64,000 nt of DNA from Elusimicrobiota bacterium (GTDB lineage Bacteria > Elusimicrobiota > Elusimicrobia > Elusimicrobiales > UBA9959): positions 6,610 through 70,609 of the forward strand of contig JACQPH010000045.1 of NCBI GenBank assembly GCA_016207645.1. Reading direction: 5' to 3'. Made by a program: the position numbers and the translations under genes. Below the pieces are notes generated by a model that saw only the letters and a list, made by a program, of their open reading frames with translations, ran no database searches and was not told the origin of the DNA. The number at the start of each line of letters is the position of its first letter. Position 1 is the first letter of the stretch. Below are positions 34,851-52,796 of the stretch, one piece after another.

Positions 34851-34881
34851 GTTGTTTTTGGCTTACATCACACAGATATGA

Positions 34882-37191
34882 TCAACCCCGCTTCTTCAGC
34901 GCCGCCAGCACCTTGTCGGGGGTGAAGGGGGCGTCGAAGAGCCGGATGCCGCAGGCATTGTAGATGGCGTTGGCCACCGCCGGCAGCGGGCCGTTGATAC
35001 CTATCTCGGAGACCGACTTGGCGCCGAAGGGGCCGGCGGGCTCCCAGGTGGGGATCAGGAAGGTGCGCAGCGGCGGCGTGTCGGCCGCCGAGAAGATCTT
35101 GTAGCGGCGGAAAGAGGCGTTCAGCGGGGTGCCGTTGGTGGAGAATTCCATTTCCTCGGACAGCGTGTGGCTGATGCCGTTCAGCACCGCCCCGTCGTTC
35201 TGGCCCTCCGCCAGCTGCGGGTTGATCGCGGTGCCGCAGTCCACGCAGCTCACGTAGTCCAGGATCTTCACCACCCCGGTCTCCATGTCCACTTCCACCT
35301 CGGCGAAATTCGCCTGGAAGGGCGGCGGGGAGGTATGGGCGAAATGGGAGGCGGAGGCCGTTATCTGGTGCTGGTTATAATAGTACAGGGAAGTATTGGC
35401 CACTTCGGAGAGGGAGCAGGAAGCTCCGTCCTTGGCCACGACCTTCCCCCCTTCCAGCCGCAGCTCCTCTTTTTTCTGGTCCAGGATCTTCGCCCCGACT
35501 TCCAGTATCATCTCGCGCACTTTCTCGGCGGTCTTCTTCACGGCTCCGCCGGAGATGAAGGTGGTGGAGGAGGCGTAGGCGCCCACGTCGAAAGGCGTGA
35601 TATCGGTGTCTGAAGAAGTAACAATTATGTCGTCGGTTTTTATTCCCAGAACCTCGGCCGCTATCTGGGCGAGGATGGTGTCGGAGCCGGTGCCCAGGTC
35701 GGCCGCGCCGACCAGCAGGTTGAAGGAGCCGTCCTCGTTCATCTTCATCGTGGCCGAGGCCATGTCCACTTCGGGGATGCCGGAGCCCTGCATCATGCAG
35801 GCCGCGCCCACGCCGCGGCGGATAGGGCCCGACTGGGCGGCGTACTTCGCGCGCTTCTCGGCCCATTTGATCTCTTCCGTGCCTTTCCGGATGGCCTCGA
35901 ACAGGCCGGTGGAGGTAATGACCTGCTCCACGCCCTCGCGGCCCTCGCCCATGGCCTTGAACACCGGCGAACCCTCTCCAAGTTTGATGTAATTCATCTT
36001 CCTGAACTCTACGGGGTCCATGCCGATCTTGGCGGCCATCATGTCCATCAGGCATTCCCAGGCGAAGAAGCCCTGCGTCGCGCCATAGCCGCGGTAAGCC
36101 CCTGCCACCGGCATATTCGTGTATACGCTGCGGCCGATGAAGCGGATATTGTTCTTCACGCGGTACATCGGGATGGTATGCGAGCCGGAGCACATCATCA
36201 CGGTGAGAGCGTGCGAGCCGTAAGCGCCCGTGTTCAGGGTTATCTCCATCTCGGCGTCGGTGATGGTGCCGTCCTTTTTCACGCCGGCCTTCAGGCGGCA
36301 GGTGGCGGGATGGCGGGTGCGGGAGGAGACGAAGGTTTCTTTCCGGGTATATTCCAGCTTCACCGGGCGCTTGGTCTTGAGCGCGAGCGCGGCGACAATA
36401 TCCTCAAGGACTTCCTGCTTGGAGCCGAAGCCGCCGCCGATGCGCGGCTTCACCACGCGGATCTTCTTCACCGGGATCTTCAGGGCCTGGGCCACTATGC
36501 GGCGCACGTGGAAAGGGACCTGCGTGGAGGTACGCAGCACCAGCCTGCCGGAATTGTCGAAATGCGCTATCGTGACATGCGGCTCGATAGCGCAGTGCTG
36601 GAGGTAGGGGATCTTCCAACTGTGCTCGAAGACATGGTCCGCTTCCTTGAACCACTCTCCGTTCTTCACTTCGAAATCGAACCTGGCCGCGATATTGTGC
36701 TTCGCGTCCGGGATATTCTTTGAATCTTCCTCGTCGTGGATGACCGGGGCGCCGTCCTTCATGGCCTCGAAGGTGTCGAAGACCGCCGGCAGGACCTCGT
36801 AATCCACCTTTATCTTCAAAAGGGCCTCGTGCGCGGCTTCAGGGGTCTCCGCGGCCACGGCGGCCACGCGGTCGCCCACGAAGCGGACCTTATTGTCCAG
36901 CGTATAGGTGTCGTAAGGGGAAGGCTCCGGGTAGCCCTGGCCGGCGGTGGTATGCGGTACGCGGGGCAGGTCCTTGCAGGTGAGCACCGCTTTCACGCCG
37001 GGGACTTTAAGCGCGGCCGAGACGTCTATCTTTTTTATCCTGGCGTGGGCGTGCGGGCTCCAGAGTATCTTCCCGCACAGCAGGCCCTTGAACTCCACGT
37101 CGTCGGTGAAGGCCGGCTCGCCGCAGGCCAGTCCCAGCGCGTCCATTTTGATCACCGGCTTATTTACGACATTCAGATCTTTAGCATCCAT
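34882..37191 (-). CDS. Xanthine dehydrogenase-family molybdopterin-binding large subunit (set 1)
   Basis: ORF 34882..37218 trimmed to ATG 37191 (MDAKDLNVVNKPV), because the track start is a TTG inside the tandem repeat. GGGFGSKQE, conserved Glu in AKSVSEIG. Confidence 0.9.
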   Translation of the reverse strand: MDAKDLNVVNKPVIKMDALGLACGEPAFTDDVEFKGLLCGKILWSPHAHARIKKIDVSAALKVPGVKAVLTCKDLPRVPHTTAGQGYPEPSPYDTYTLDNKVRFVGDRVAAVAAETPEAAHEALLKIKVDYEVLPAVFDTFEAMKDGAPVIHDEEDSKNIPDAKHNIAARFDFEVKNGEWFKEADHVFEHSWKIPYLQHCAIEPHVTIAHFDNSGRLVLRTSTQVPFHVRRIVAQALKIPVKKIRVVKPRIGGGFGSKQEVLEDIVAALALKTKRPVKLEYTRKETFVSSRTRHPATCRLKAGVKKDGTITDAEMEITLNTGAYGSHALTVMMCSGSHTIPMYRVKNNIRFIGRSVYTNMPVAGAYRGYGATQGFFAWECLMDMMAAKIGMDPVEFRKMNYIKLGEGSPVFKAMGEGREGVEQVITSTGLFEAIRKGTEEIKWAEKRAKYAAQSGPIRRGVGAACMMQGSGIPEVDMASATMKMNEDGSFNLLVGAADLGTGSDTILAQIAAEVLGIKTDDIIVTSSDTDITPFDVGAYASSTTFISGGAVKKTAEKVREMILEVGAKILDQKKEELRLEGGKVVAKDGASCSLSEVANTSLYYYNQHQITASASHFAHTSPPPFQANFAEVEVDMETGVVKILDYVSCVDCGTAINPQLAEGQNDGAVLNGISHTLSEEMEFSTNGTPLNASFRRYKIFSAADTPPLRTFLIPTWEPAGPFGAKSVSEIGINGPLPAVANAIYNACGIRLFDAPFTPDKVLAALKKRG

Positions 37192-37202
37192 ATTCAGTCC
37201 CC

Positions 37203-37273
37203 AATCTCCAATCTCCAATCTCCAATCTCCAATCTCTAATCTCTAAATCTCTAACCTCTAATCTCTAACCTCT
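37203..37273. repeat. Heptamer tandem array, ~10 units AATCTCC/AATCTCT/AACCTCT (minus strand: TGGAGAT/TAGAGAT/TAGAGGT)
   Basis: Direct reading: 4x AATCTCC, 2x AATCTCT, AAATCTCT, AACCTCT, AATCTCT, AACCTCT. It fills the gap between the 2Fe-2S subunit stop (37265) and the large-subunit ATG (37191). Confidence 0.95.
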
Positions 37274-37768
37274 ACTCTTCAGCCTTTTAGCCGCGTTCTT
37301 CACGGCCTCTACCTGCTTCACATAGCCGGTGCAGCGGCAGAGGTTGCCGTCGAGGGCTTTGCGGATCTCGGCCTCGGTGGGGTCCGGTATCCTGTCCAGC
37401 AAATACTTGGAGGAAAGTATCATCCCCGGTATGCAGAAGCCGCACTGCACGGCGCCGGCCTCTACGAAAGCCTGCTGCAGCGGGTGCGGGTTATGCACGG
37501 AACCGAGCCCTTCGATAGTGGTGATCTCGCCGCCGTGGGCGGCTACGGCCGGGACCAGGCAGCCCAGCACCGGCTTCCCGTTCAGGAGCACCGCGCAGGA
37601 GCCGCAGTCGCCGGTATCGCAGCCCTTCTTCGCGCCTTTCCAGCCGTGGCGGCGCAGGGCGTCGAGCAGGGACTCCGCGTTCCTGACCGAGAGTTCCTTC
37701 TTTTCGCCGTTCACGGCCGCGGATATCCCGAAAAAACCTTTATCGGCGGCCAGCAGGCTGTTTTTCAT
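37265..37768 (-). CDS. XDH-family [2Fe-2S] small subunit (set 1)
   Basis: CDTGDCGSCAV plant-type cluster motif and QCGFCIPG..CRCTGY second cluster motif. Confidence 0.9.
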   Translation of the reverse strand: MKNSLLAADKGFFGISAAVNGEKKELSVRNAESLLDALRRHGWKGAKKGCDTGDCGSCAVLLNGKPVLGCLVPAVAAHGGEITTIEGLGSVHNPHPLQQAFVEAGAVQCGFCIPGMILSSKYLLDRIPDPTEAEIRKALDGNLCRCTGYVKQVEAVKNAAKRLKSRG

Positions 37769-38580
37769 ATTTTACCTTCCATGAAGCGCTTGAGCAGGTT
37801 AGAGGCGGCCGCGCAGCGGTACTCGCCGGCCCTGGCGGCTTCCAGTTCCGCGGCGAAGGCGGCGGCCGCGGCGGCCCCTTCTCCGGAGAGCATGGCCTTT
37901 TCCGCCTCGGGCGCCCGGAACGGCCTGGGCGAAAGCGCGCCCACGGCCGCGCGCGCCTGGGTCACGGACTTCCCCTTCTTCTCGGCGGAGAAGAAGAGGG
38001 TTATATAGGATTCCCAGCTGGACGCCGTCCTGGCCAGCTTAATGAACTCGCATTTCCAGTTCCTGGTCTTCGCGGGGATAATTGCTTCGGTTATCAGGCT
38101 GTCCAGCCCCGGCCTCAGGCCCAGGCCCGAGGTGTAGAGGTCCTGGAAATCTATAAGTTTTGCGCCTTTTCCGGTCTGCAGCCGCACCTTGGCGTCCAGG
38201 GCCAGCAGGACTACGGGGAAGATATTGAAGGAATGCGGGCGGGCTATGTTCCCGCCTATCGTGGCCATGTTGCGGATGAGCTGGGTAGAGCAGGCCGCCG
38301 CGGCCGCGGCTATGCTCCCTCCGGCCCAGGTACGGCAGAGCCTGGAGCGGTCTATCTCGTCGAAGGTGGCTCCCGCGCCGATGACCAGGTTCCCGCCCTG
38401 GAGCCTGATGTCTTTTATCGGCAGGTTCTTCAGGTCCAGGTAGGTTTCCACGGAATCGGGCAGGGTCTTGGACACCAGCGTGCCGCCGGCGAGAGCCATG
38501 GCTTTATATCTTTTATTCAGGAGCAGGGAGAGCGCTTCTTTCACTTTGGACGGACAGGCGTAGTATTTGATGTTTTTCAC
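37765..38580 (-). CDS. XDH-family FAD-binding medium subunit (set 1)
   Basis: ORF 37765..38655 trimmed to GTG 38580 (GGAGGA upstream, avoids overlap with the previous gene). LAGGTLV, IRNMATIGGNI. Confidence 0.8.
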   Translation of the reverse strand: MKNIKYYACPSKVKEALSLLLNKRYKAMALAGGTLVSKTLPDSVETYLDLKNLPIKDIRLQGGNLVIGAGATFDEIDRSRLCRTWAGGSIAAAAAACSTQLIRNMATIGGNIARPHSFNIFPVVLLALDAKVRLQTGKGAKLIDFQDLYTSGLGLRPGLDSLITEAIIPAKTRNWKCEFIKLARTASSWESYITLFFSAEKKGKSVTQARAAVGALSPRPFRAPEAEKAMLSGEGAAAAAAFAAELEAARAGEYRCAAASNLLKRFMEGKI

Positions 38581-38612
38581 GGTTCCTCCGGATAGATCCC
38601 GCGCGGGCCTCT

Positions 38613-39452
38613 TCAGGCCAGCGACTTTAAAGCGCGTTCGAGCAGGACCCCGCACATGTCCAGGCGGTAGGCCGCTTCGCTGCGGGTGTCGGTGATCGGT
38701 GAAGCTTCGGTCCTGACCAGGGCCGAGGCCTCCGCTATAGTTTCAGCCGAAAGCTTTTTATCGGCCAGGAAGGCGGAAGTGCGGGCCGCGTACAGCGGCA
38801 CCGGGGCCACGGAGCCGAGCGCCACGCGGACTCTCTTTACCGCGCCGCCGGAAAGCTCGGCCGTGACGGCTACCGCGGCTTTGGAGATACCGAAATAAGC
38901 GCGCGGGCCGAGCTTGAGGTAGGCGCCGGCATGGCGGCGCTTCCGTATCTCGAAGCCGAGTATCAGCTCGTCCTTTTTCAGCGCGGTCAGCTTCGGACCA
39001 AGGAAAAAGTCCACGAGGGGCAGGCGGCGCTTTTTCCCCTTCAGGGCGAGCAGGACAGAAGCCCCTTCGGCCACCAGGGAACAGGCGCCGTCGGCGCAGG
39101 GGCTGGCGTTGGCGGCGTTACCGCCCAGCGTGGCCATATTGCGCAGGCTGGGGCTGGCGAAATGCGGTATGGCCGCAACAAGGGCCGGGCACCAGCGCGC
39201 CGCAGCTTTGGAGCTTTCTATCTCGGAAATTTTCACCCCGGAGCCGATGAACAGGGAGCCTGCCGCCTCTTTTATGGAGCCCAGCTCGGGGAGGTCGCCT
39301 ATATCTATCCAGCACTCGGAGTGCTCAACTCCGGCAACTCCGGCGGTGACCAGGTCCGTGCCGCCGGCGAGATAGCGGCGGCGGGCGGGCAGGCCCGGCA
39401 GCATTTTCCAGAGCTCTTTGAGGTTAGAGGGCTTTACTATGATCTCGGGCAT
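38613..39452 (-). CDS. XDH-family FAD-binding medium subunit (set 2)
   Basis: YLAGGTDLV, LRNMATLGGNAANASP. 279 aa. Confidence 0.85.
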   Translation of the reverse strand: MPEIIVKPSNLKELWKMLPGLPARRRYLAGGTDLVTAGVAGVEHSECWIDIGDLPELGSIKEAAGSLFIGSGVKISEIESSKAAARWCPALVAAIPHFASPSLRNMATLGGNAANASPCADGACSLVAEGASVLLALKGKKRRLPLVDFFLGPKLTALKKDELILGFEIRKRRHAGAYLKLGPRAYFGISKAAVAVTAELSGGAVKRVRVALGSVAPVPLYAARTSAFLADKKLSAETIAEASALVRTEASPITDTRSEAAYRLDMCGVLLERALKSLA

Positions 39453-39459
39453 AAAGAAA

Positions 39460-39487
39460 GGGTAGAGGGTTTAGGGTAGAGGGGAGA
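39460..39487. repeat. Second heptamer array GGGTAGA GGGTTTA GGGTAGA GGGGAGA (plus strand), related to the 37.2 kb array but inverted
   Basis: Direct reading of the 37-nt gap between set-2 2Fe-2S and FAD subunits. A further GAGGTTAGAGGG lies at 39420..39431 inside the FAD gene. Confidence 0.8.
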
Positions 39488-39489
39488 GA

Positions 39490-39975
39490 CTACTTTTTTA
39501 TTTTCCGGGCTTTCCCGACCGCGGACAGCACCTTCTCGTAGCCTGTGCAGCGGCAGAGGTTGCCGGTCAGCCCCAGCTTGATCTCTTCGAGCGTGGCCTT
39601 CGGCCTGCGGCGCAGCAGCGCTTCCGAAGCCACTATCAGGCCGGGAGTACAGAAGCCGCACTGCACGGCCCCTTCGGCCATGAAGGTCTTCTGCAGCGGG
39701 TGCAGCCCGCCATCGCGGCCCTTTATCCCTTCTATGGTCACGAGTTCTTTGCCGTGGACCTGCACGGCCATCATCAGGCAGGAATTCACGGCCCTGCCGT
39801 CGAGCAGGACCAGGCAGGCGCCGCATTCGCCCTCGCCGCAGCCTTCCTTGGTGCCTTTCAGTCCGAGGTCCTCGCGGATAAATTCCAGCAAAGAGCGGGA
39901 AGAAGGGAGCTCCCGCTCCATGCTCACGCCGTTCACCCTGCATTTCAGGACGAACGGGCTTGTTGACTGTTTCAT
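39490..39975 (-). CDS. XDH-family [2Fe-2S] small subunit (set 2)
   Basis: CGEGECGACLV and QCGFCTPG..CRCTGY. Confidence 0.9.
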   Translation of the reverse strand: MKQSTSPFVLKCRVNGVSMERELPSSRSLLEFIREDLGLKGTKEGCGEGECGACLVLLDGRAVNSCLMMAVQVHGKELVTIEGIKGRDGGLHPLQKTFMAEGAVQCGFCTPGLIVASEALLRRRPKATLEEIKLGLTGNLCRCTGYEKVLSAVGKARKIKK

Positions 39976-42263
39976 CGGGCGGCGACCTTCTTCAGCTCTT
40001 TCCAGATCTTCTCCGGCAGCAGCGGTACCGAATTTACGCGGGCGCCGCAGGCGTTCTTTATAGCGTTGGCCACGGCCGGCGCCACGCCTATGAGCGGGAC
40101 CTCGCCCATGCCCTTGGCCTTATAGGGTCCCCCGGCGTAGGGTTTTTCTATGAAAGTTATATCATATTCGGGTTTATCGGCGGTAGTAGCGATGACATAG
40201 TCGGTAAAGTTGGGATTTACCATGATCCCGTTCTTGTAGATAAGGTTCTCGTACAGGGCCCAGCTCATGCCCTGGAGTATGCCGCCCTGGGCCTGCCCGA
40301 CGGCCAGACGCGGGTTGACTATTCTGCCCACGTCGTAGGCGGCCCAGATCTTCTTGACCTTCGCCACGCCGGTCTTCAGGTCCACCTCCACTTCCGCGGC
40401 GTCGGCCGAGTAGGAATAGATCACGTAGGCGTCGCCCTGGCCGTCCTCCATCCTGAAAGTGGTGCGGGGCGCGGCGTACCAGCCCTGCTCGCTCATCTTC
40501 AGGCGGCGGAACCAGCATTCGGCCACGACTTTCCTGAAATCCACGGACTTCCCGCCCATGGAGAAAATTCCGCCGGCCGCGACCATCTTTTTCGAGGCGT
40601 CGGCGCCGGCGGCGGAAAGCAGGCTGAAGGCGGTCTTAAAAATGCGCTCCCGTAGCGGCGCGGCGGCTTCGATGATGGCGTTGCCGCTCATCAGCGTGGT
40701 GCGGCTGGCGACGGTAGGGCCTGAATCGGGGACCTTCGAGGAATCGACTTCCTCCACTTTCACGCTTTCGTACGGAGCGTTCAGCGTCTCGGCGGCTATC
40801 TGCGCCAGCACCGTGAGCGCGCCCTGCCCCATCTCGGTATTCCCGACGTTCACTCCCACGGAGGAATCCTTGTAGATATTCACCAGCGCGCCGGCGCGGT
40901 CCAGGTAGCGCCCCTTCGCGCCCAGGCCCACGCCGTAATAAGTCGCCGAGAAACCTATCCCGGTCGCCACGTCGCCGGCCGCCGCCCGGGGCTTCGCCTT
41001 TTTGTCCCAGCCCGAACGCTTCCGCACCGTCTGGACCAGCTCTTTCAGGCCGCAGGAGGAGTTAAGTTTCTGCCCGGTCACCGTCCTGTCGCCGGGCTCG
41101 AGCAGATTTTTCAGCCTGAACTGCACGGGGTCCATCCCGACTTTCTCCGCCAGTTCGTCTATGAGCGACTCCTGGGCGAAGCAGACCTGCGGCTGGCCGA
41201 AACCGCGGAAAGCCCCGCAGGGGACCTTATTGGTGGCGGCGGCGTAGGTCTTTATATCCACGTTGGCTATCTTGTAGGGCCCGGCGGCGTGCACGGTGCC
41301 GCGCCAGAGCACTATAGGCGAAAGGGTGGAATAGGCCCCGCCGTCCAGCACGTAGTTCACGCGGCAGGCCGTTATCCTCCCGCTCTTATCCGCGGCGTAG
41401 GCCACGCGCGCCCAGCCGGGATGGCGCTTGGACATGCTCTGGAAATCCTCTTTGCGTCCGTAAATGAGCTTTACCGGTTTTCCGGTCTTGGCGGCGCAGA
41501 GGGCCGCGTGGGAAGCCACCAGGGCGGGCACGTCCTCCTTGCCGCCGAAACCCCCGCCGGTGACGGTCTGAAGTATCTTCACCTTGTGATACGGGATACC
41601 CAGCGCGGCGGCCACGGCGTCCAGCACGTAGAAGGGGCACTGCGTGGTGCTGTGCACCGTCATGCCGCCGTCGGACTCCGGCAGCGCTATGGCGCCCTGG
41701 GTTTCCAGGTAGGCATGCACCTGGTAATTCGTGCTGAACTCCCCCTCCGCAGTATAGGCGGCTTTTTTTAAGGCGGCGTCCACCGAGCCTTTTTTTATGA
41801 CGAAGCTGGAAATGACGTTATCATCGCCGAAAATTTTGACCGCGTCCTTCTCGAGCGCCTTCAGAGGGTCCTCGACGAAGGGCAGCTCCCTGTACTTTAT
41901 CTCCACCAGGGCGGCGGCTTTCCGCGCGGCGCGGGCCGTGGCGGCCACCACCAGCGCCACCGTCTCGCCGGCGAAGCGGGCCTCTTTCTCGGGCAGGAAG
42001 GGATAATCCTGCATCACCACCGGCCACTTGTTCACGCCCTTTATGTCCCTGTACGTGACCAAAGTCACATAGCCGGGCAAGCGCCGCGCACGGGCATCGG
42101 AAATTGAAAGTATCTTTATCCTGGGGCGCGGCGAGCGCACGGCGGCCGCGTGCAGCAGGCCGGCGAACTCCCTGTCATCCGCGTATTGCGCGGCCCCGAC
42201 GGCCTTTATCAAGGCGTCCTTCCTGGGCAGCGATCTCCCGATATATGATAATTTTTCTTTCAT
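39972..42263 (-). CDS. Xanthine dehydrogenase-family molybdopterin-binding large subunit (set 2)
   Basis: GGGFGGKEDV, conserved Glu in AKGMGEVP. 763 aa. 4-nt overlap with its 2Fe-2S subunit. Confidence 0.9.
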   Translation of the reverse strand: MKEKLSYIGRSLPRKDALIKAVGAAQYADDREFAGLLHAAAVRSPRPRIKILSISDARARRLPGYVTLVTYRDIKGVNKWPVVMQDYPFLPEKEARFAGETVALVVAATARAARKAAALVEIKYRELPFVEDPLKALEKDAVKIFGDDNVISSFVIKKGSVDAALKKAAYTAEGEFSTNYQVHAYLETQGAIALPESDGGMTVHSTTQCPFYVLDAVAAALGIPYHKVKILQTVTGGGFGGKEDVPALVASHAALCAAKTGKPVKLIYGRKEDFQSMSKRHPGWARVAYAADKSGRITACRVNYVLDGGAYSTLSPIVLWRGTVHAAGPYKIANVDIKTYAAATNKVPCGAFRGFGQPQVCFAQESLIDELAEKVGMDPVQFRLKNLLEPGDRTVTGQKLNSSCGLKELVQTVRKRSGWDKKAKPRAAAGDVATGIGFSATYYGVGLGAKGRYLDRAGALVNIYKDSSVGVNVGNTEMGQGALTVLAQIAAETLNAPYESVKVEEVDSSKVPDSGPTVASRTTLMSGNAIIEAAAPLRERIFKTAFSLLSAAGADASKKMVAAGGIFSMGGKSVDFRKVVAECWFRRLKMSEQGWYAAPRTTFRMEDGQGDAYVIYSYSADAAEVEVDLKTGVAKVKKIWAAYDVGRIVNPRLAVGQAQGGILQGMSWALYENLIYKNGIMVNPNFTDYVIATTADKPEYDITFIEKPYAGGPYKAKGMGEVPLIGVAPAVANAIKNACGARVNSVPLLPEKIWKELKKVAAR

Positions 42264-42282
42264 AAAGCCTGATCTTACTATT

Positions 42283-43803
42283 TCAGCCGACCTTGTATAT
42301 TACCACGGTTTCCGACTTTCCCTTCAGCGCGGCCTTGCCGAGCGGCGCGAAGGTCACGGCGGAACCCAGGGAGGCTTTCCCCCTGGAGTACGCGGCCTCG
42401 CTTACCAGGATATCGGTGTTGAACTCCCTGGTCTTGGACTCCAGGCGCGAGGCTATATTCACGGTATCGCCGATAAAGGTGTATTCCAGGCGCGCGGAAG
42501 TCCCGATATTCCCGCCGACCAGCTTCCCGGAGTGAATGCCGATGCCGAACTCCACCGTCCCCGGTGCTTTGCCGGAGGCGTTATACTCCGCCAGGGCCTT
42601 GCGCATCGCCATGGCCGCGCGCACGGCGTCGGCGGCGTAATCCTCGGAACCGAGCAGCGGCGTGTAGACGGCCATCACCGCGTCGCCGATGAATTTATTG
42701 ATAACGCCTTTGTTCGCGGTGATCGGCGGGGTGATATAGTGGAAATAATCGTTCAGGAAGCCGACCAGCATGGACGCGCTCATCTTTTCGCTCAGCGGGG
42801 TGAAGTTGCGGATATCGCAGAACATCACCGCCGCCTCCATGTCCTCGCCGCCCAGGTTCACCTTCTTGTTCTTGATCAGCTCCCGCGCTATCTCGATGGA
42901 CAGGTACTTGCCGAAGGTGTCCTGCAGTTCCTCGCGCTCTTTCAGCCCGTCCACCATCTCGTTGAAACCGGCCTTCAGGTTGGCTATCTCGTCGGTAAAA
43001 TAGATGCGGGTCTTTACGAAGTCGCCGCCGGCCACGCGCTTCATCTTGGCTATCAGCCCGTCCAGCGGCACCTGGACGCCGCTGTAGATGGTGGAAAGGC
43101 CGGTGAGCAGCAGCACGCCGGAGAGGAAGAGCAGCATCCCCAGGTCCTCCGCGAAAAAGTCCCAGGGCACCCTGTTCAGGAAGAGAATATAGATGAGGAT
43201 GAAGGGGATCACCGCGAAACCTGTTATCAGCGAAGAGACCTTCACGTAGAGTGGAATGGAGAAACCCGATCTCAGCCGGGAGAGTTCCTCCGGGGCGTAA
43301 AGAGCCTCTATCAGCTTCTTCTGCTTTGAAAGGTGGGCGTCTATATGCGCCACCAGCAGCGCGGCCTGAGCGACGAAGGCGACGCCGGCGGCGGCGTATT
43401 GCTGCCAGGATAGCCCGACGGCAAAACCCGGGACGGCCAGAGCGGTCGCCTGGGCGATCACCAGCATGAGGAAAGCGTCGCGGTAAATATTTCCCAGCCG
43501 GACCCGTATCTTCGCTTTAAGTATCTCGTCCGGCTTCCTCACGTAGAGGTAGGCCGGCCGGCCCCAGAGATAGGTGAGCATGATCATCACCAGGAAAGGG
43601 ATCCCGATGTTCACCCCGGTATGCCGGGTACCGAGGCTCATATTGACCAGCGCCCCGGCGGCCCTGGGTTCGCCGGAAAAAGCGACCATCGCTGTCCTGA
43701 AGAAGGCTGAATTGACGAAAGAGAGGAACAGCGGTATCGTCAGGAGATTGAAGAACTCCGTAAGCTGGCCCTTGCGCTCTTGCTGTTTTGGATCGCCGAA
43801 CAT
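42283..43803 (-). CDS. Membrane class III adenylate/guanylate cyclase with HAMP linker (class IIIb-like Lys/Thr specificity pair)
   Basis: Multi-TM N-terminus, HAMP-like segment (AKMKRVAGGDF..FNEMVDGL). Cyclase core FCDIRNFT, NKFIGDAVMAVY, EYTFIGDTVNIASRLES. Confidence 0.85.
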   Translation of the reverse strand: MFGDPKQQERKGQLTEFFNLLTIPLFLSFVNSAFFRTAMVAFSGEPRAAGALVNMSLGTRHTGVNIGIPFLVMIMLTYLWGRPAYLYVRKPDEILKAKIRVRLGNIYRDAFLMLVIAQATALAVPGFAVGLSWQQYAAAGVAFVAQAALLVAHIDAHLSKQKKLIEALYAPEELSRLRSGFSIPLYVKVSSLITGFAVIPFILIYILFLNRVPWDFFAEDLGMLLFLSGVLLLTGLSTIYSGVQVPLDGLIAKMKRVAGGDFVKTRIYFTDEIANLKAGFNEMVDGLKEREELQDTFGKYLSIEIARELIKNKKVNLGGEDMEAAVMFCDIRNFTPLSEKMSASMLVGFLNDYFHYITPPITANKGVINKFIGDAVMAVYTPLLGSEDYAADAVRAAMAMRKALAEYNASGKAPGTVEFGIGIHSGKLVGGNIGTSARLEYTFIGDTVNIASRLESKTREFNTDILVSEAAYSRGKASLGSAVTFAPLGKAALKGKSETVVIYKVG

Positions 43804-43841
43804 TTGTCGCCTCTAAACGGTTTCAGGAAAGACGGTTAGAT

Positions 43842-44447
43842 TCAGTTTTGCGGGCGGACGAGGGCTTCGTAGTCCTCGGGCGTGTCGATGTCGCGGACCA
43901 CTTCGGGGTCCTTGACCTCCAGGTCGGCTATACTCGCCAGCGGGTTATGGGTGACCCAGTGCAGCCCCTTTTCGAGCGGGCCTTCGAAGCAAAGGCTTCT
44001 GTACTTCGCAGGTATTATTATGGGGTGCCCGCGCTTCAGCCTGGAGTCGGCCGCCCTGAAGGTCCGGGGGATAACTATGGAGTCCTTGTTATAGGACCAG
44101 AACTCGACAAGTTTCTTATAGGTTTCCGGGAGCACGGCGGGCTGGTCGACCAGGCAGACCATGAAAGCCTCGGTAAATTCAGAAACGACCCCCAGCCCCT
44201 CCCGCAGCGAGGAGAGCTGCCCGTGCTCTGGCTTTAGGTTCAGTGCCACTTTCTCCTCCGCCGGCGTCCAGGCGGACAGGATCTCTTTCGAGGACCGGCC
44301 CAGCACCACGACCCTGTCTTCCACGCCCGCCGACCGGAGCGCGGCGCAGACATGCTCGATGAAAGGCTTGCCGCGCCACTGGAGAACGGCTTTAGGCCGC
44401 CCCATCCTGGCAGAATCCCCGGCCGCAAGTATAATGGCAGACAGCAT
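43842..44447 (-). CDS. mocA: MobA-like NTP transferase (molybdenum cofactor cytidylyl/guanylyl-transferase, MocA-like)
   Basis: MLSAIILAAGDSARMGRPKAVLQWRGKPF N-terminal motif. ~200 aa. Heads the XDH operon. Confidence 0.8.
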   Translation of the reverse strand: MLSAIILAAGDSARMGRPKAVLQWRGKPFIEHVCAALRSAGVEDRVVVLGRSSKEILSAWTPAEEKVALNLKPEHGQLSSLREGLGVVSEFTEAFMVCLVDQPAVLPETYKKLVEFWSYNKDSIVIPRTFRAADSRLKRGHPIIIPAKYRSLCFEGPLEKGLHWVTHNPLASIADLEVKDPEVVRDIDTPEDYEALVRPQN

Positions 44448-44524
44448 GGCTATATTATCCCTTGTTTAGATAATACCAAAAGTCCGCGCATTGTTTAACA
44501 GGGTCGCGGCGTAGCGTTCGCTTT

Positions 44525-44553
44525 TTGACGAAGCGGCGGATATATCGGATAAT
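44525..44553 (+). promoter_or_regulatory. Candidate sigma70 promoter TTGACG-17-GATAAT for the M16 peptidase gene
   Basis: TTGACG 44525..44530, 17-nt spacer, GATAAT 44548..44553. 35 nt upstream of ATG 44589 with GGAGGG between. Confidence 0.4.
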
Positions 44554-44588
44554 ATACTTAGATTCTTCTCACAGCCCGGAGGGTACAC

Positions 44589-47360
<2,772 letters not shown>

Positions 47361-47377
47361 ACCGGGCGGGTCAAGAC

Positions 47378-47417
47378 GAAAGAACACGCGCCGCTTACGG
47401 CGCGTGTTCTTTTTTTA
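47378..47417. terminator. Bidirectional intrinsic terminator
   Basis: AGAACACGCGCCG-CTTA-CGGCGCGTGTTCT with TTTTTTTT on the + strand and an A-rich 5' flank. Lies between convergent genes. Confidence 0.85.
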
Positions 47418-47432
47418 TACGGGGTCTGACTT

Positions 47433-48809
47433 TCAGCAGCCGGCTTTCCGGTAAAGCCTGGCGGCGGCTTTATTGGCGCGCTCCGCCAGCTTGAACTCGT
47501 CGACATTGACCAGGCGGCCGTTCTTTACCGCCACTTTGCCGTTGACTATGGTGTATTTCGTCCGGTGGGAACAGCCGCAGAAAAGCAGCGAGGCCAGCGG
47601 GTCCGACTTTGAACCCGCGAAGTCCAGCCCGCTTACGTCGAAGACGGCTATATCGGCGGCCTTCCCGGGCTCTATGGAACCTATGTCGTCGCGCCCCAGC
47701 ACCGAGGCCCCGCCGCGGGTGGCCAGCCTGAAAGCGTCCCGCGCCGGCATGGCTTCCACGCCGGCCTTCACTCGCTGCACCAGCATGGCCTGGCGTATCT
47801 CGCCCAGCATATCGGAGGAGTCGTTGGAGGCCGAACCGTCCACGGCCAGGCCCACGGGGACCTTGTGGTTCAGGAACATCCGGATGGGCGCTATGCCCGA
47901 GCCTAGCCGCAGATTGGAGCAGGGGCAGTGGGCGGCACCGGTCCGGGTCCCGCCCATTTTTTTCGCCTCGGCCTCGTTTATGAAAACGCAGTGCGCGAAC
48001 CAGGCGTTACCCTCGGAAACCCAGCCGACGGACTCCATGTATTCCAACGGGCGCATTTTAAAGAGCTTTTTGCAGAAAGCCTCTTCATCTATGGTTTCCG
48101 CCAGGTGGGTGTGCATACGCACCCCCCATTTTTTGGCCATCACGGCGGTGAGCTTCAGCAGTTCCGTGGTGACCGAGAAAGGCGAGCAGGGCGCCAGCGC
48201 CAGGCGGGTCATGGCGAACTTCCGCGGATCGTGGAACTTGCGCACCAGCCGCTCGCAGTCCTTCATGATGAAGTCCTCGGTCTGCACCACGCTGTCCGGC
48301 GGCAGACCGCCTTTGGAGCGGCCCCTGGACATGGAGCCGCGCGTGGCGTGGAAGCGCATGCCCAGCTCGCGGGCCGCCTCTATCTGCGTGTCTATGAAGA
48401 AGCCGCTGTCCTTTTCGGGGAACAGGTAAAGGTGGTCGGAACTGGTGGTACAGCCGGTCAGCAGCAGCTCCCCCAGGCCGACCTGGGTGCTGGCGTAGAC
48501 GGCCTCGGGGTCGATATGCTTCCAGATGTCGTAAAGATAGATAAGCCAGTCGAAAAGCTTGGCGTCCTGCACCTTGGGCAAATTGCGGGTAAGCGTCTGG
48601 TAAAGGTGGTGATGGGTGTTGACGAAACCGGGCAGGACGACGCAGCCTTTCGCGTCTATGACCGCGTCCGCTTTGACCCTGAGAGCATTCCCGACCTTCT
48701 TTATTTCCGCGCCCTCGATGTAGACTTCGCCGCCCTTTATCTCGCTGCCCTTCCCGTCCATGGTGGCCAGCACCAGCGCGTTCTTTATCAGGATGGATCT
48801 TGTCGGCAT
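47433..48809 (-). CDS. Amidohydrolase of the 8-oxoguanine/guanine (isoxanthopterin) deaminase group
   Basis: ORF 47433..49091 trimmed to MPTRSILIKNALV. VNTHHHLYQTLTR metal motif, HTHLAE, AVDGSASND. Confidence 0.85.
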   Translation of the reverse strand: MPTRSILIKNALVLATMDGKGSEIKGGEVYIEGAEIKKVGNALRVKADAVIDAKGCVVLPGFVNTHHHLYQTLTRNLPKVQDAKLFDWLIYLYDIWKHIDPEAVYASTQVGLGELLLTGCTTSSDHLYLFPEKDSGFFIDTQIEAARELGMRFHATRGSMSRGRSKGGLPPDSVVQTEDFIMKDCERLVRKFHDPRKFAMTRLALAPCSPFSVTTELLKLTAVMAKKWGVRMHTHLAETIDEEAFCKKLFKMRPLEYMESVGWVSEGNAWFAHCVFINEAEAKKMGGTRTGAAHCPCSNLRLGSGIAPIRMFLNHKVPVGLAVDGSASNDSSDMLGEIRQAMLVQRVKAGVEAMPARDAFRLATRGGASVLGRDDIGSIEPGKAADIAVFDVSGLDFAGSKSDPLASLLFCGCSHRTKYTIVNGKVAVKNGRLVNVDEFKLAERANKAAARLYRKAGC

Positions 48810-48837
48810 ACGGGGTTCTTTGCTCCGAACGGGTTTA

Positions 48838-48873
48838 TTATCCGCTGAAAATATTATAGTAAAATAAGGATAA
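48838..48873. promoter_or_regulatory. AT-rich divergent control region with TTATCC..GGATAA inverted repeat bracketing -10-like hexamers
   Basis: TTATCC 48838..48843 and GGATAA 48868..48873. TATTAT/TATAGT at 48852..48860. Lies between divergent catabolic genes. Confidence 0.35.
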
Positions 48874-48902
48874 GGGCAAAGACGGCCGCAACCGGAGAAG
48901 CC

Positions 48903-51467
48903 ATGAAAAAGACCATAAAATTCCTTTCCGACGCGCAGCTCAAGAGCGAGGCGGACCGCTGCCTCTACTGCGAGGAGAAGCCCTGCAAGACGGCCTGCCC
49001 GGCGGATTGCTCCCCGGGGGATTTCATCATGGCCGTGCGGCAGATGGAGAATTCGGATTTCAAGCGCTCGGCCGCCCTGATCATGGGCCACAATACCTTC
49101 GGCGGCGTCTGCGGTGCGGTCTGCCCCGACTGGTTCTGCGTAAAGGCCTGCTCCCGGAAGATCTTCGACAACCCCATAAACATACCGGCGGTGCAGGCCG
49201 CCGTAGTGCAGAAAGCCAAGGAGTTGGGGATGATGCCCGAATTCAGGCCGGCTAAGCCCAACGGGAAGAAAGTCGCCGTAGTGGGCGCCGGGCCTGCCGG
49301 TTTAGGCGCGGCCGGCACGCTGGCGCAGCTGGGCTACAAAGTGGACATTTTTGAAAAGGCTAAGAAGACCGGCGGCGCCTGTAATCTTATACCGGAAAAG
49401 CGCCTGCCGGCGGAAGTACTCCGCACCGAGATAGAATTCGTAAGAACGCTGGGCGACATCTCTATCAAGACCGGCTCGGCGGTAAAGGACCCGGCCTCGC
49501 TGCTGAAAAAATACGGGGCGGTCATAGTGACCGCCGGCGTGGCGGACCAGATAAGGCTGAATATCCCCAACGAGGGCCTGGGAGTGGAAGGACTGGAATT
49601 CCTGGCGAACCGGAAAAAATATCCGCTCAAGGGGAAGAACGTGGCCGTGATAGGCGGCGGGGCCGTGGCGGCCGACTGCGCGATGACGGCGCTGGAAGCC
49701 GGGGCGCATAAAGCGGAGATCTTCACCCGGAAGAACATAGGCCATATCCAGCTTTCGCAGAAGGAACTGCACGACCTCATCGGGGCCGGGGTGAACATAA
49801 ACGCCAAATCCCGCATAACCGGCATTCTGGCCGCCGGAAAGAGGATAAACGGCATCACCGTGGCCCGCCTGGACGAGAAGGCTAACGATATCAAGGGGTC
49901 CTGCCAGGTCCGCTCCGACATAGACTTCGTGGTGCTGGCCATAAAGAACCTGCCGGTCTTCACCGACAGGAAGAAGAAGGGCGTTTTTCTCGCCGGGGAC
50001 TGCCGCAACGGCGCCTCCACCGTGGTGGAAGCCGTGGCCTCGGCCAAGAACGCCGCCCTCGAGGCCGACGCCTACCTGCGCGGCGGCAAGCCCGTCCCGC
50101 GCGCCGGGTTGTTCCCCGGGGCCATGAGCGCCTATGAAAAGAACATCATGAACGGCGAACTGGCCTATACGCGGAAGGTCTGCGGCAGGACCGATTCCTG
50201 GTCCACCGACAAGAAAAGCGCCGTCATCCTGAAAGGCAGGAACATGCTGCCGGTGGACCTGAGCACCGACTTCTTCGGCCGCAAGCTGCTTTCCCCGTTC
50301 CTTATCTCCGCCTCCCCCCACTCGGACGGCTACGACCAGGTGAAGCGCGCCTACGAGGCCGGCTGGCCCGGCGTGGTGATGAAGACCGCCTTCGACGGGC
50401 TGCACATACACATCCCCTCGGAGTACATGGTCACCTTCAGCGAGAGCACCTACGGCAATTCCGACAACGTGTCGGGCCACCCGCTGGACCGGGTCTGCGC
50501 CGAAGTGGCCAGGCTGGTGAAGGAATACCCGGACCGCCTCACCGCGGCCTCCACCGGCGGCCCGGTGACCGGGAACGACGAGGCCGACAGGAAAGCCTGG
50601 CAGTCGAATACCCTTAAGCTGGAAAAAGCCGGGGCTATGGCTATAGAATATTCCCTCTCCTGCCCGCAGGGCGGCGACGGCACCAAGGGCGATATCGTTT
50701 CGCAGGACCCCGAGCTGTCCGCCAGGATCATAGGCTGGGTGATGGAAGTTTCCGACCCCGAAGTGCCGAAGCTTTTCAAGCTGACCGGCGCCGTCACCGC
50801 CATCTGGCAGGTGGTGAACGCTATAAAGCGGGTTTACGCCGGATACCCGCATAAGAAGGCCGGCATAACGCTGGCCAATTCCTTCCCGGCTCTGGCTTTC
50901 CGCAAGCGCCTGTCCGGGAAAGGGAAATGGGAGGAAGGCATGGTGGTGGGCATGAGCGGCGAGGGCGTGGCCCCCATCAGCAATCTCACCATCTCCAAGG
51001 CCGTGAACCTGGGCGTGCCCATCTCCGGCAACGGCGGGCCCATGGACTACAAGGCCGCCGCGCATTTCCTGGCGCTCGGCGCGAAGTCGGTGCAGTTCTG
51101 CACCGTGGTCATGAAGCACGGCTTCGGCATCATAGACGAGCTCAACTGGGGGCTCAGCCACATGCTCGAGGAGAAAGGCTACAAGTCAGTCGAGGAATTC
51201 ATCGGCTGCGCCCTGCCCGGGCCCGTGACGAACTTCCCCGACCTCACCCCGGTAAAGAACATCCCGTCGGTGGACGCGGAGCTCTGCCGCCACTGCGGCA
51301 ACTGCGCGCGCTGCGGCTACCTGGCGGTGAAGCTGGACGGGGACAAGGTGCCTAAGTTCGACGCCTCGAAGTGCATAGGCTGCTCGCTCTGCGTCAAGAA
51401 ATGCTTCTCCGGCGCGCTGAAGATGCGCAAGCGCACCGCGGAGGAGCTCAGGGTTTGTCCGGAATAA
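48903..51467 (+). CDS. Dihydropyrimidine-dehydrogenase-like fusion: GltD/PreT-type FeS-FAD-NAD(P)H module + PreA/DHODH-type FMN barrel + 2x[4Fe-4S]
   Basis: N-terminus CLYCEEKPCKTACP, VAVVGAGPAGLGAA and AVIGGGAVAADCA Rossmann motifs. Central TIM-barrel part with IEYSLSCPQGGDG. C-terminal CRHCGNCARC / CIGCSLCVKKC. Confidence 0.85.
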   Translation: MKKTIKFLSDAQLKSEADRCLYCEEKPCKTACPADCSPGDFIMAVRQMENSDFKRSAALIMGHNTFGGVCGAVCPDWFCVKACSRKIFDNPINIPAVQAAVVQKAKELGMMPEFRPAKPNGKKVAVVGAGPAGLGAAGTLAQLGYKVDIFEKAKKTGGACNLIPEKRLPAEVLRTEIEFVRTLGDISIKTGSAVKDPASLLKKYGAVIVTAGVADQIRLNIPNEGLGVEGLEFLANRKKYPLKGKNVAVIGGGAVAADCAMTALEAGAHKAEIFTRKNIGHIQLSQKELHDLIGAGVNINAKSRITGILAAGKRINGITVARLDEKANDIKGSCQVRSDIDFVVLAIKNLPVFTDRKKKGVFLAGDCRNGASTVVEAVASAKNAALEADAYLRGGKPVPRAGLFPGAMSAYEKNIMNGELAYTRKVCGRTDSWSTDKKSAVILKGRNMLPVDLSTDFFGRKLLSPFLISASPHSDGYDQVKRAYEAGWPGVVMKTAFDGLHIHIPSEYMVTFSESTYGNSDNVSGHPLDRVCAEVARLVKEYPDRLTAASTGGPVTGNDEADRKAWQSNTLKLEKAGAMAIEYSLSCPQGGDGTKGDIVSQDPELSARIIGWVMEVSDPEVPKLFKLTGAVTAIWQVVNAIKRVYAGYPHKKAGITLANSFPALAFRKRLSGKGKWEEGMVVGMSGEGVAPISNLTISKAVNLGVPISGNGGPMDYKAAAHFLALGAKSVQFCTVVMKHGFGIIDELNWGLSHMLEEKGYKSVEEFIGCALPGPVTNFPDLTPVKNIPSVDAELCRHCGNCARCGYLAVKLDGDKVPKFDASKCIGCSLCVKKCFSGALKMRKRTAEELRVCPE

Positions 51468-51470
51468 ACC

Positions 51471-52796
51471 ATGAAAAAGACCATACTGATAAAGAACGGG
51501 ACCATAGTTACTCTCGGGGAAAAAAACAAGGTGCTGTCCGGCCACGCCCTGCTTATAGAGGACGGCCTCATAAAGAAAATAGCCCCCCGGAGCAGCTTCA
51601 AAGGGAAGTATTCGAAAGTTATCGACGCTTCGGGCAAGCTGATCATGCCGGGCTTCATAAACGCCCATATGCACTTCTACAGCACCTTCGCCCGCGGGCT
51701 CGGGAAGGCGGCCCCGTCGAGGAATTTCGTGGAGATACTCAACAACCTCTGGTGGCGGCTGGACAAGAACCTCACCAACGCGGACTCCTACTACAGCGCC
51801 CTGATACCGCTCATCGACGCGGTGCGCAAAGGCACCACCACCCTGCTGGACCACCACGCCAGCCCCTTCGCCATCACCGGCTCGCTGGCGGCGGTGGAAA
51901 AGGCGGTCAGGGAGGCCGGCCTGCGCGCCTGCCTCTGCTACGAGGTTTCGGACCGCGACGGGAAGGAGAAGGCCAGGGAGGGGCTCGACGAGAATTCCGC
52001 CTTCATAACGGCCTCGGCCGTCCGGAACGACAACACAGTGAAGGCCATGTTCGGCCTGCACGCCTCGTTCACCATTTCGGACGAGACGCTGGAGGAAGCC
52101 GCCTACCGCGGCCATAAGCAGGGCGCCGGCTTCCATATCCATACCGCCGAGTCCCAGGCGGACCAGCTGCACTGCGAATCCCACCACAAACTGCGCGTCG
52201 TGGAAAGGCTGCGCGACTTCGGCATACTGGGCAGAAAGTCCATAGCCGCCCACTGCGTGCACGTCAACGAGGCGGAGATAGATATACTCAAAGAAACAGG
52301 CACCGCCGTGGTGCACAACCCGCAGTCGAACGCCAACAACTCCGTCGGCATCGCCGACCTGGTAAAGATGTCGGCCGCCGGCGTGCTGGTGGGTCTCGGC
52401 ACCGACGCCATGACCGTGAACATGCTGGAGGAAGCGCGTTCCGCCCTCTGGCTTCAGCATCTGAAGCGGGACCCGTCGCAGGGCTTCATGGAAGCGGGCA
52501 ACGCCCTGCTGGTCAACAACGCGAAGATCGCGAACCGCTGCTTCAAGGGGCTGGGCGAGCTGAAGGAAGGCTTCGCCGCCGACCTGGCGATAATGGATTA
52601 TCTGCCCCCCACGCCGCTGGACGCCTCCAACTTCTACGGCCATTTGATATTCGGCATAAGCCAGAGCGCGGTGGACACCACCATAGCCGCCGGGCGGGTG
52701 CTCATGGAAGGCAAGAAGCTGAAACTGGACCTGGACGAGGAGGAAGTCACCCGCAAATCCGCGGAACTGGCGAAGAAGCTCTGGAAGAATTTTTGA
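51471..52796 (+). CDS. ssnA: SsnA-family putative aminohydrolase
   Basis: MPGFINAHMHFYSTFARGL resembles E. coli SsnA HNHFYSGLSRG. 441 aa. Starts 3 nt after the DPD-like gene. Confidence 0.8.
   Translation: MKKTILIKNGTIVTLGEKNKVLSGHALLIEDGLIKKIAPRSSFKGKYSKVIDASGKLIMPGFINAHMHFYSTFARGLGKAAPSRNFVEILNNLWWRLDKNLTNADSYYSALIPLIDAVRKGTTTLLDHHASPFAITGSLAAVEKAVREAGLRACLCYEVSDRDGKEKAREGLDENSAFITASAVRNDNTVKAMFGLHASFTISDETLEEAAYRGHKQGAGFHIHTAESQADQLHCESHHKLRVVERLRDFGILGRKSIAAHCVHVNEAEIDILKETGTAVVHNPQSNANNSVGIADLVKMSAAGVLVGLGTDAMTVNMLEEARSALWLQHLKRDPSQGFMEAGNALLVNNAKIANRCFKGLGELKEGFAADLAIMDYLPPTPLDASNFYGHLIFGISQSAVDTTIAAGRVLMEGKKLKLDLDEEEVTRKSAELAKKLWKNF

Follow-up and report, generated by a model that had tools for sequence, protein, structure and literature searches.

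What purine chemistry is encoded at positions 34882-52796 of the 64-kb stretch of contig JACQPH010000045.1 from an Elusimicrobiota bacterium (GCA_016207645.1; "the window" hereafter means this whole stretch), where genes for xanthine dehydrogenase (XDH)-family enzymes, a MocA-like protein, an 8-oxoguanine deaminase, a fusion protein resembling dihydropyrimidine dehydrogenase (DPD) and an SsnA amidohydrolase lie side by side? An earlier note on this DNA (the original prediction) described these genes as co-localised, and open reading frame (ORF), domain and family searches located all of them. It counted two XDH-family enzymes, which are present, although each is a full trio of molybdenum (Mo), iron-sulfur (FeS) and flavin adenine dinucleotide (FAD) subunits, so that there are six XDH genes and not two. 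Based on homology and gene context, we propose that the cluster probably encodes the upper module of urate degradation by the reductive (2,8-dioxopurine) pathway in an anaerobic member of the Elusimicrobiota, and that the genes for the later steps lie at another locus. The cluster reveals no new kind of pathway; it is a variant and not a new route, because both the pathway and the substitution of a PydA-type reductase were published in 2025.

The reductive urate pathway was solved only in 2025, in gut bacteria and for its relevance to gout. In Escherichia coli, XdhD-YgfM converts urate with NADH to 2,8-dioxopurine (isoxanthine), YgfK with NAD(P)H reduces 2,8-dioxopurine only if the reaction is coupled to SsnA hydrolysis, which yields ureidomethyl-hydantoin, and HyuA, YgeW (or UacY), YgeY and YgeX complete the breakdown to pyruvate; in Clostridioides difficile, YgfK is replaced by the PydA homolog UacX, which is without the FAD domain, and SsnA, the best marker of the pathway, occurs in Elusimicrobiota too (Li et al., 2025, bioRxiv 10.1101/2025.05.19.654654). 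The same pathway was reported independently by Liu et al. (2025, bioRxiv 10.1101/2025.04.24.650524), who found the clostridial molybdoenzymes to be selenium-dependent and who make no mention of the deaminase, PydA or Elusimicrobia. A literature search on Elusimicrobia and xanthine dehydrogenase returned no relevant paper. In E. coli K-12, mocA, ygfK, ssnA, ygfM and xdhD are contiguous and adjoin ygeW, ygeX, ygeY, hyuA and yqeA. The connection to the ssnA/ygfK/ygfM/xdhD neighbourhood of E. coli that the original prediction drew is real, and biochemical work has since placed these genes in reductive urate degradation (Li et al., 2025; Liu et al., 2025).

Homology and gene context suggest the following flow through the cluster. 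Urate would be formed by XDH2 (Mo/FeS/FAD), which would oxidise hypoxanthine and xanthine, and by the 8-oxoguanine deaminase, which would act on 8-oxoguanine. XDH1, consisting of Mo, FeS and YgfM-like FAD subunits, would strip the 6-oxo group from urate to give 2,8-dioxopurine, with electrons from NAD(P)H entering via its FAD subunit. The DPD-like flavoprotein, in which PreT-like and PreA-like parts are fused, would act in the place of YgfK and reduce the pyrimidine ring of 2,8-dioxopurine via a DPD-type catalytic cysteine, and SsnA would hydrolyse the ring to ureidomethyl-hydantoin or 5-ureido-dihydrouracil, pulling the unfavourable reduction forward. The MocA-like protein would supply the cytidine-dinucleotide molybdenum cofactor. 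The later steps would be encoded at a separate locus, as in relatives, and would comprise ureido removal by YgeY and YgeW, formation of ATP from carbamoyl phosphate by carbamate kinase and deamination of diaminopropionate by a pyridoxal phosphate (PLP) enzyme.

The fused reductase and its SsnA partner

The reductase gene (48903-51467, plus strand) encodes an Fe-S flavoprotein with Fer4_20, Pyr_redox_2 and DHO_dh domains and a C-terminal 2x[4Fe-4S] domain; Fer4_20 and Pyr_redox_2 occupy residues 6-321, and DHO_dh (PF01180, residues 526-755) scores 33 bits against a cutoff of 27. It is followed after 4 bp by ssnA (51471-52796, plus strand), while XDH1 and XDH2 lie 9-17 kb away. SsnA passes both models of its family, with 538 bits against 444 for NF005540 and 509 against 455 for TIGR03314 (IPR017700), and it aligns to E. 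coli SsnA over its full length, with 33% identity across 436 residues (234 bits, compared with 69 bits for GuaD). It is predicted to open the reduced pyrimidine ring hydrolytically, toward ureidomethyl-hydantoin. The exact SsnA sequence of the window is on record in only one 8.8-kb Logan contig (SRR12113385). The fusion protein misses the cutoff of the YgfK model TIGR03315 (139 against 835 bits), to which the GltD-like part alone aligns, and it is filed here as a functional analogue and not as a YgfK member. With a complete PreT-like half at its N-terminus, the protein is expected to draw electrons from NAD(P)H, and as an analogue of YgfK and UacX it is predicted to be an NAD(P)H:2,8-dioxopurine reductase. 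Its closest homologs (80-92% identity) are all from Elusimicrobia metagenome-assembled genomes (MAGs), mostly of groundwater.

A scan of one genome per species found 80 loci that encode the fused reductase, 56 from Elusimicrobiota and 24 from other phyla, and these were annotated by tblastn with the window proteins and E. coli proteins (loci are given L numbers below). In 43 of the 49 Elusimicrobiota loci with enough sequence and in 13 of 20 loci from other phyla, ssnA is directly downstream of the reductase gene, and the order of DPD fusion followed by ssnA recurs in Elusimicrobiota, Ignavibacteria, Kapaibacteria, KSB1, Verrucomicrobia and Deltaproteobacteria. The deaminase gene adjoins the DPD fusion in 41/56 Elusimicrobiota loci and in 0/24 loci of other phyla. 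One Elusimicrobial locus, L095, is syntenic with the whole block, running through PFK, mocA, cyclase, xdhC, XDH2 and XDH1 on to TolC-MacAB, a system that the window also contains. Given the frequencies of the ssnA (43/49) and deaminase (41/56) neighbours and the same XDH1-XDH2-cyclase-mocA order in L095, the co-localisation of the cluster genes is not chance.

In several loci of other phyla, among them Ignavibacteria and KSB1, the operon runs from the reductase and ssnA through ygeY, a PLP enzyme, a hydantoinase, XDH and its FeS subunit to ygeW; operons that continue from the DPD-ssnA pair into such genes are found in L053, L058, L065, L085, L086, L070 and L077, with ygeW 64-70% identical to E. 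coli YgeW. Such operon contexts link the DPD-like fusion with urate degradation and speak against a role in pyrimidine metabolism. Replacement of a YgfK-type protein by a DPD-type reductase, as the original prediction had it, is thus supported by the failed YgfK model, by the full set of DPD domains with their cysteine and by the operons shared with ygeY, hyuA, XDH and ygeW elsewhere.

Could the locus instead combine two unrelated functions, the XDHs and the deaminase serving oxidative purine salvage or interconversion and the DPD-like and SsnA-like proteins a Pyd-type uracil/thymine pathway? The fusion has the full DPD architecture and retains the catalytic Cys671 together with Asn609 and Asn736 of pig DPD, its homologs are named "dihydropyrimidine dehydrogenase" in public annotations, and SsnA has been described as related to PydB (Li et al., 2025). 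However, the fusion misses the NCBIfam equivalog cutoff for PreA (209 against 335 bits), while SsnA belongs to the SsnA family by both of its models. Asn668 of pig DPD is replaced by Ser, as is Thr737, and both the motif EYSLSCPQGGDGTKGD and the Ser at the Asn668 position are invariant in 12 homologs. No gene for beta-ureidopropionase (PydC) lies nearby, and the same DPD-ssnA pair is set among XDH, ygeY, hyuA and ygeW in other phyla, which is the composition of a urate cluster. We therefore consider a Pyd-type pathway unlikely, favour reduction of the purine-derived ring, and suggest that in these genomes the name "dihydropyrimidine dehydrogenase" has probably been given in error to a purine-ring reductase. 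One Elusimicrobium-type MAG has a gene for a B12-binding radical SAM protein (L044, 8554-9942) that separates ssnA from the DPD-like gene.

Molybdoenzymes, deaminase and interleaved genes

On the minus strand, the order of transcription is mocA, cyclase, the Mo, FeS and FAD subunits of XDH2, and the FAD, FeS and Mo subunits of XDH1; the ORFs of the cluster are backed by a third-position GC of 0.76-0.87 in a window of ~62% G+C. XDH1 is made up of a molybdopterin subunit (34882-37191, minus strand; Pfam MoCoBD_1 and MoCoBD_2, each ~1e-77), a [2Fe-2S] subunit (37265-37768, minus strand; Fer2_2 and Fer2) and a YgfM-like FAD subunit (37765-38655, minus strand; FAD_binding_5, 2e-24), the true start of which is probably near 38580. 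The FAD-FeS-Mo gene order is as in the XDH1-type loci L095 and L096. Compared with its E. coli paralogs, the Mo subunit is closer to XdhD (39% identity, 480 bits) than to XdhA (33%, 390 bits), and the XdhD model TIGR03313 scores 612 bits on XDH1 and 259 bits on XDH2. An insertion loop otherwise seen only in XdhD is also found in XDH1, where "MGEGREG" aligns to E. coli "IGEGKAP", the segment that holds Glu606, a residue proposed to orient urate (Li et al., 2025); this loop is in neither XdhA, XDH2 nor the XDHs of Ignavibacteria-type clusters. XDH1 and XdhD also share the "SEIG" motif with the catalytic Glu. The [2Fe-2S] subunit is 34% identical to residues 3-151 of XdhD, which form a fused N-terminal domain in the E. 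coli protein, and the best E. coli match of the FAD subunit is YgfM (54 bits), slightly over XdhB (52 bits). XDH1-type genes are common in Elusimicrobia, and the closest homologs (up to 91% identity) all come from Elusimicrobia MAGs, mostly of groundwater; in other phyla, homologs with 54-58% identity adjoin ygeY, ygfK, ygeW and ssnA. XDH1 is accordingly classed as XdhD-type, and it is predicted to be a urate 6-dehydroxylase/2,8-dioxopurine dehydrogenase.

XDH2 comprises a molybdopterin subunit (39972-42263, minus strand; top NCBIfam match PucD, 539 bits), a [2Fe-2S] subunit (39490-39975, minus strand; NCBIfam XdhC_XDHase 186 bits, PucE 171 bits) and an XdhB-like FAD subunit (38613-39452, minus strand; FAD_binding_5 and CO_deh_flav_C). 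The motifs "GGGFGGKED", "GAFRGFGQPQ" and "GMGEVP" include the catalytic Glu and the canonical GGGFGGKE and FRGFG, which we take to be the positions of bovine Glu802 and Arg880, with roles as in bovine and Rhodobacter capsulatus XDH. The FAD subunit matches E. coli XdhB with 105 bits and YgfM with 27 bits, and XDH2 adjoins the DPD-ssnA core in Elusimicrobia at 74-90% identity. XDH2 stays under the equivalog cutoffs of PucD (TIGR03196, 539 against 783 bits) and XdhA (NF043082, 491 against 780 bits); it is predicted to turn hypoxanthine and xanthine into urate. A third XDH clade, neither XdhD-like nor close to XDH2, is found in Ignavibacteria/KSB1-type clusters (L058 9022-11259, L053 16230-18470, L085 17599-19800, L065 19288-21426). 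It has the motifs GGGFGGKDD, GAMRGFGSPQ and GIGEPTN, is without the Glu606 loop and occupies the spot expected for the urate-reducing enzyme.

The deaminase gene (47433-48809, minus strand) is transcribed divergently from the DPD-ssnA operon. Its product scores 640 bits against the equivalog cutoff of 532 for NF006055 and matches the solved 8-oxoguanine deaminase 7ww2 over its full length (497 bits, residues 3-453), with 3hpa matched as well; it is predicted to convert 8-oxoguanine to urate and ammonia. The AT-rich intergenic region between the divergent genes, read off the sequence, is 93 bp long (48810-48902) and is presumed to be a shared promoter/regulatory region for the deaminase and DPD-ssnA. 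Over the window, Rfam at gathering thresholds gave a tRNA at 1477-1548 as its single match, with no riboswitch or other known RNA, including within 48810-48902.

Degradation of another N-heterocycle instead of purines, such as pterins (isoxanthopterin), nicotinate or s-triazines, would agree with the fact that neither XDH reaches an NCBIfam equivalog cutoff and with the breadth of the deaminase family, whose other matches include isoxanthopterin deaminase (2paj, 237 bits) and triazine hydrolases (~283 bits). The deaminase is nevertheless far closer to 8-oxoguanine deaminase and passes the curated cutoff, XDH2 has xanthine-type active-site motifs, XDH1 has the XdhD-specific loop, and the SsnA membership and the ygeW/ygeY context indicate urate. 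Such a substrate is therefore highly unlikely, and purine degradation by way of urate remains our preferred assignment.

The MobA-like NTP transferase (43842-44447, minus strand) has MocA/YgfJ (TIGR03310) as its top NCBIfam match with 137 bits, under the cutoff of 186, and is 23% identical to E. coli MocA; in most Elusimicrobia loci its gene is beside the core or XDH genes. As the original prediction noted, a cyclase and an M16 peptidase are interleaved with the cluster genes; the former is conserved and the latter is specific to the window. The cyclase is a membrane protein with HAMP and class III nucleotidyl cyclase domains (42283-43803, minus strand; Pfam Guanylate_cyc 6e-23), an odd partner for molybdoenzyme genes. 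Orthologs with 49-77% identity have the same position within the mocA-XDH operon in many Elusimicrobia (L002 4010-5506, L095 1197-2720), and the cyclase may be a conserved passenger or a regulator, perhaps purine- or redox-responsive. A second cyclase of the window, with a CHASE2 sensor, is encoded at 61239-63413. The secreted M16 peptidase (44589-47360, plus strand; Pfam M16 and M16_C, with a signal-peptide-like N-terminus) has no tblastn match in any of the 80 related loci. At its position between mocA and the deaminase gene relatives have PFK, with or without a CitMHS transporter, and the peptidase gene is an interloper, an unrelated insertion outside the conserved cluster. Compared with L095, the window is thus without xdhC and PFK and has the M16 gene instead; it is also without the CitMHS transporter of L002 and L004. 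Where L002, L004 and L095 have the XdhC-like chaperone gene, between XDH2 and the cyclase, the window has 20 bp (42263-42283).

The lower pathway and the rest of the window

Where are the later steps encoded? When E. coli YgeW, YgeX, YgeY, YqeA and HyuA were compared by tblastn with the six frames of the 64 kb, only a 65-residue N-terminal amidohydrolase motif was matched, so that the 34 kb upstream and the 11 kb downstream of the cluster are without lower-pathway genes. The original prediction was right that ygeW, ygeX, ygeY, hyuA and carbamate kinase are missing here. The possibility that they lie just outside the cluster was rejected after the E. coli proteins had been searched against the whole window and related loci. 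Among the 80 scanned loci, ygeY is present in 1/56 from Elusimicrobiota and 6/24 from other phyla, ygeW in 0/56 and 5/24, and hyuA in 0/56 and 4/24.

This distribution bears on a further explanation, in which the cluster is a truncated, stand-alone upper module with which purine conversion would end at the SsnA product, or which would serve in reverse or for detoxification, with no lower module. Besides the empty flanks of the window, the lower genes are absent within 10 kb in ~50 related loci, and HyuA was never found in Elusimicrobia loci. On the other side, a search for the lower module with a YgeY fragment of an Elusimicrobium MAG as the query found YgeY-family genes, 70-99% identical to it, to be abundant in Elusimicrobia MAGs, where they occur together with genes for YgeW, carbamate kinase and a PLP enzyme. 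They include L087, which has ygeY and ygeW (67% identical to E. coli YgeW) and whose YgeY cluster is named for RIFOXYA12_FULL_51_18, the MAG that also has L033, an upper-cluster locus resembling that of the window. L089 has ygeY, ygeW and carbamate kinase (49% identical to YqeA), and L090 and L101 have ygeY, ygeW, a carbamate-kinase-like gene and a PLP enzyme, L101 being a further finding of the Elusimicrobia-type lower module in a ygeY-centred metagenome scan. On the 2.19-Mb contig of L093, the DPD fusion and ssnA form a contiguous group with ygeY, a carbamoyltransferase gene, a kinase-like gene and two PLP enzyme genes. A stand-alone upper module is hence highly unlikely, and an upper module complemented from a separate locus is the preferred interpretation. 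The original prediction of a variant reductive route with its later steps elsewhere stands insofar as relatives encode these steps at other loci; what does not stand is its novelty, the route having been published in 2025 with UacX as a substitute.

Full clusters in other phyla (L112, L117, L121, L133, L135) combine the deaminase, a three-subunit XDH1-type enzyme, ygeY, ygfK, ygeW, yqeA and ssnA. Because of these combined clusters, the components of the window cluster are regarded as established pathway partners elsewhere.

In the Elusimicrobia-type lower module (L090 16749-19765, L093 13946-17784, L101), a conserved 366-aa protein bears a faint resemblance to amino-acid/carbamate kinases (32-34% identity to YqeA), one or two PLP proteins of the PALP family are only ~25% identical to YgeX, and L090 also encodes a small Gamma_PGA_hydro-family protein. 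These kinase-like, PALP-family and Gamma_PGA_hydro proteins may be non-orthologous substitutes for YqeA, YgeX or the missing ring-opening step. In groundwater Elusimicrobia (L087, L090), long series of radical SAM genes surround the ygeY locus.

Two candidates for the missing hydantoinase were considered. The deaminase-like gene is unlikely to be a non-orthologous replacement of HyuA, given its full-length 497-bit match to a solved 8-oxoguanine deaminase. HyuA and the deaminase are never found together beside DPD-ssnA in the first 80 loci; among the clusters in other phyla, many are without both and one has both. An amidohydrolase at 55524-56774 was rejected as a UacY- or hydantoinase-type enzyme, as it is HutI (TIGR01224, 412 against 298 bits) within a hutI-yajQ-hutU-hutH block.

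Several observations weigh against the proposed assignment. The assignment of substrates rests on homology, with 33-40% identity to the E. coli enzymes, and on gene context, and the presumed location of the lower module elsewhere in this genome is drawn from relatives. XDH1 misses the TIGR03313 cutoff of 1102; part of this shortfall arises because the model expects a fused FeS domain and the FeS subunit is a separate gene here. At the position of bovine Arg880, XDH1 has an Arg ("GAYRGYG") where E. coli XdhD has a Gln ("GAYQGYG"). None of selD, yqeB and yqeC is in the 64-kb window, and the characterised enzymes are selenium-dependent. The 64 kb also contain no XdhC-family gene, though relatives carry a short XdhC-like one (its 270-aa product is 31-37% identical to the N-terminal part of YqeB). 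Most of the uracil-binding residues of pig DPD are retained in the fusion, so that a pyrimidine substrate would be possible from sequence. Finally, none of the Elusimicrobial loci examined, upper or lower, has a HyuA-type hydantoinase, and the pathway as drawn consequently leaves the second ring opening without an assigned enzyme; many clusters of other phyla that are complete in other respects are likewise without hyuA.

It is possible, if doubtful, that these features together mark a hydantoinase-independent reductive urate pathway in Elusimicrobia and in many further environmental anaerobes with clusters that are without hyuA. An enzyme not yet recognised, or this clade of SsnA itself, would then open the second ring of the SsnA product, the deaminase and the three-subunit XdhD-type enzyme would form an undescribed entry branch for 8-oxoguanine/guanine (possibly via 2-amino-8-oxopurine), and the fused NAD(P)H-type reductase would represent a third, widespread class of 2,8-dioxopurine reductase.

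The remainder of the window includes a nitric oxide and oxidative-stress island at 16247-24353, with genes for two Rrf2 regulators, a hemerythrin, a nitrite/sulfite-reductase-like ferredoxin protein, a NorB to which a cytochrome c-like domain is fused, DUF2400, rubrerythrin, peroxiredoxin and desulfoferrodoxin, and the rubrerythrin and desulfoferrodoxin lead us to regard the host as an anaerobe. A complete purine biosynthesis operon lies at 1610-16184, ~20 kb from the purine-degradation cluster; it includes a 722-aa PurN-PurH-like fusion (5319-7487, minus strand) with Formyl_trans_N (PurN-like), MGS and AICARFT/IMPCHase (PurH) domains. The tRNA at 1477-1548 (minus strand, 75 bits) overlaps the 5' end of a response-regulator ORF as listed (1084-1506). 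At 32000-36000, a stretch with an HTH gene (32594-32926), the gene of a HEAT-repeat protein with a signal peptide (33365-34705) and the 3' part of XDH1, the G+C dips to 0.53-0.56; L095 has genes for a WG-repeat protein and a rhodanese at the syntenic position, which is thus a variable spot. Downstream of ssnA are genes for a YkuD transpeptidase, for SIS and HAD proteins and the hutI-yajQ-hutU-hutH block, and the run from SIS and HAD to hutH (53670-61146) is syntenic 3' of ssnA in many Elusimicrobia (L010, L015, L018, L022, L027, L036). As listed, the HutH ORF (724 aa) has ~220 N-terminal residues without homology that overlap a DUF3307 gene (60525-61238) in another frame; its true start is probably near 60480.

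Comparison with known systems

The cluster would extend the reductive urate pathway to free-living groundwater Elusimicrobiota, and its DPD-fusion form to many uncultured phyla. It would do so with four departures, namely a full-length and presumably NAD(P)H-linked DPD-type reductase, a split, three-subunit XdhD, a fixed 8-oxoguanine deaminase partner and a separate lower module without a recognisable hydantoinase; the proteins are candidates for enzymology and for the engineering of simpler uricolytic pathways.

With the E. coli cluster, that of the window shares SsnA, an XdhD-type molybdoenzyme with a YgfM-like FAD partner, MocA and a reductase gene that, like ygfK, is directly upstream of ssnA. 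It differs in having the PreT+PreA-fused DPD-like protein in place of YgfK, an XDH1 that is split into FeS and Mo subunits and has Arg in place of the E. coli Gln, an 8-oxoguanine deaminase that replaces guaD as the aminopurine entry enzyme, and a second, canonical XDH joined to the same operon; hyuA, ygeW, ygeX, ygeY, yqeA, yqeB and yqeC are not in the cluster of the window.

The pathway of C. difficile and C. sporogenes (UacX; DOPDH, which is XdhAC) would have the same logic, from urate through 2,8-dioxopurine and the reduced ring to hydrolysis, and in both systems a DHO_dh/PydA-type flavin mononucleotide (FMN) domain replaces YgfK upstream of SsnA. UacX, compared here by its published description, is without an FAD/NAD(P)H domain and is presumably fed by ferredoxin (Li et al., 2025), whereas the window protein is fused to a whole PreT-like half. 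The clostridial DOPDH is without the FAD subunit that XDH1 has, and the UacY-type D-aminoacylase of the clostridial pathway has no counterpart here.

The reductase shares with pig DPD (1gt8/1h7x) and bacterial PreT/PreA the succession of N-terminal 2x[4Fe-4S], FAD, NADPH, FMN barrel and C-terminal 2x[4Fe-4S] domains, but it matches pig DPD with 160 bits only, falls below the PreA cutoff and has Ser at both of the substituted positions, Asn668 and Thr737. The partners differ as well, being SsnA, the XDHs and YgeY/YgeW here and dihydropyrimidinase and beta-ureidopropionase there.

The characterised 8-oxoguanine deaminases are known from aerobes, in which urate is passed to oxidative catabolism. 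The enzyme of the window resembles 7ww2 and 3hpa in its full-length match and in passing the equivalog cutoff, and it differs in its setting, being linked here to a putative module for reductive urate degradation and, in clusters of other phyla, to enzymes of the XdhD type.

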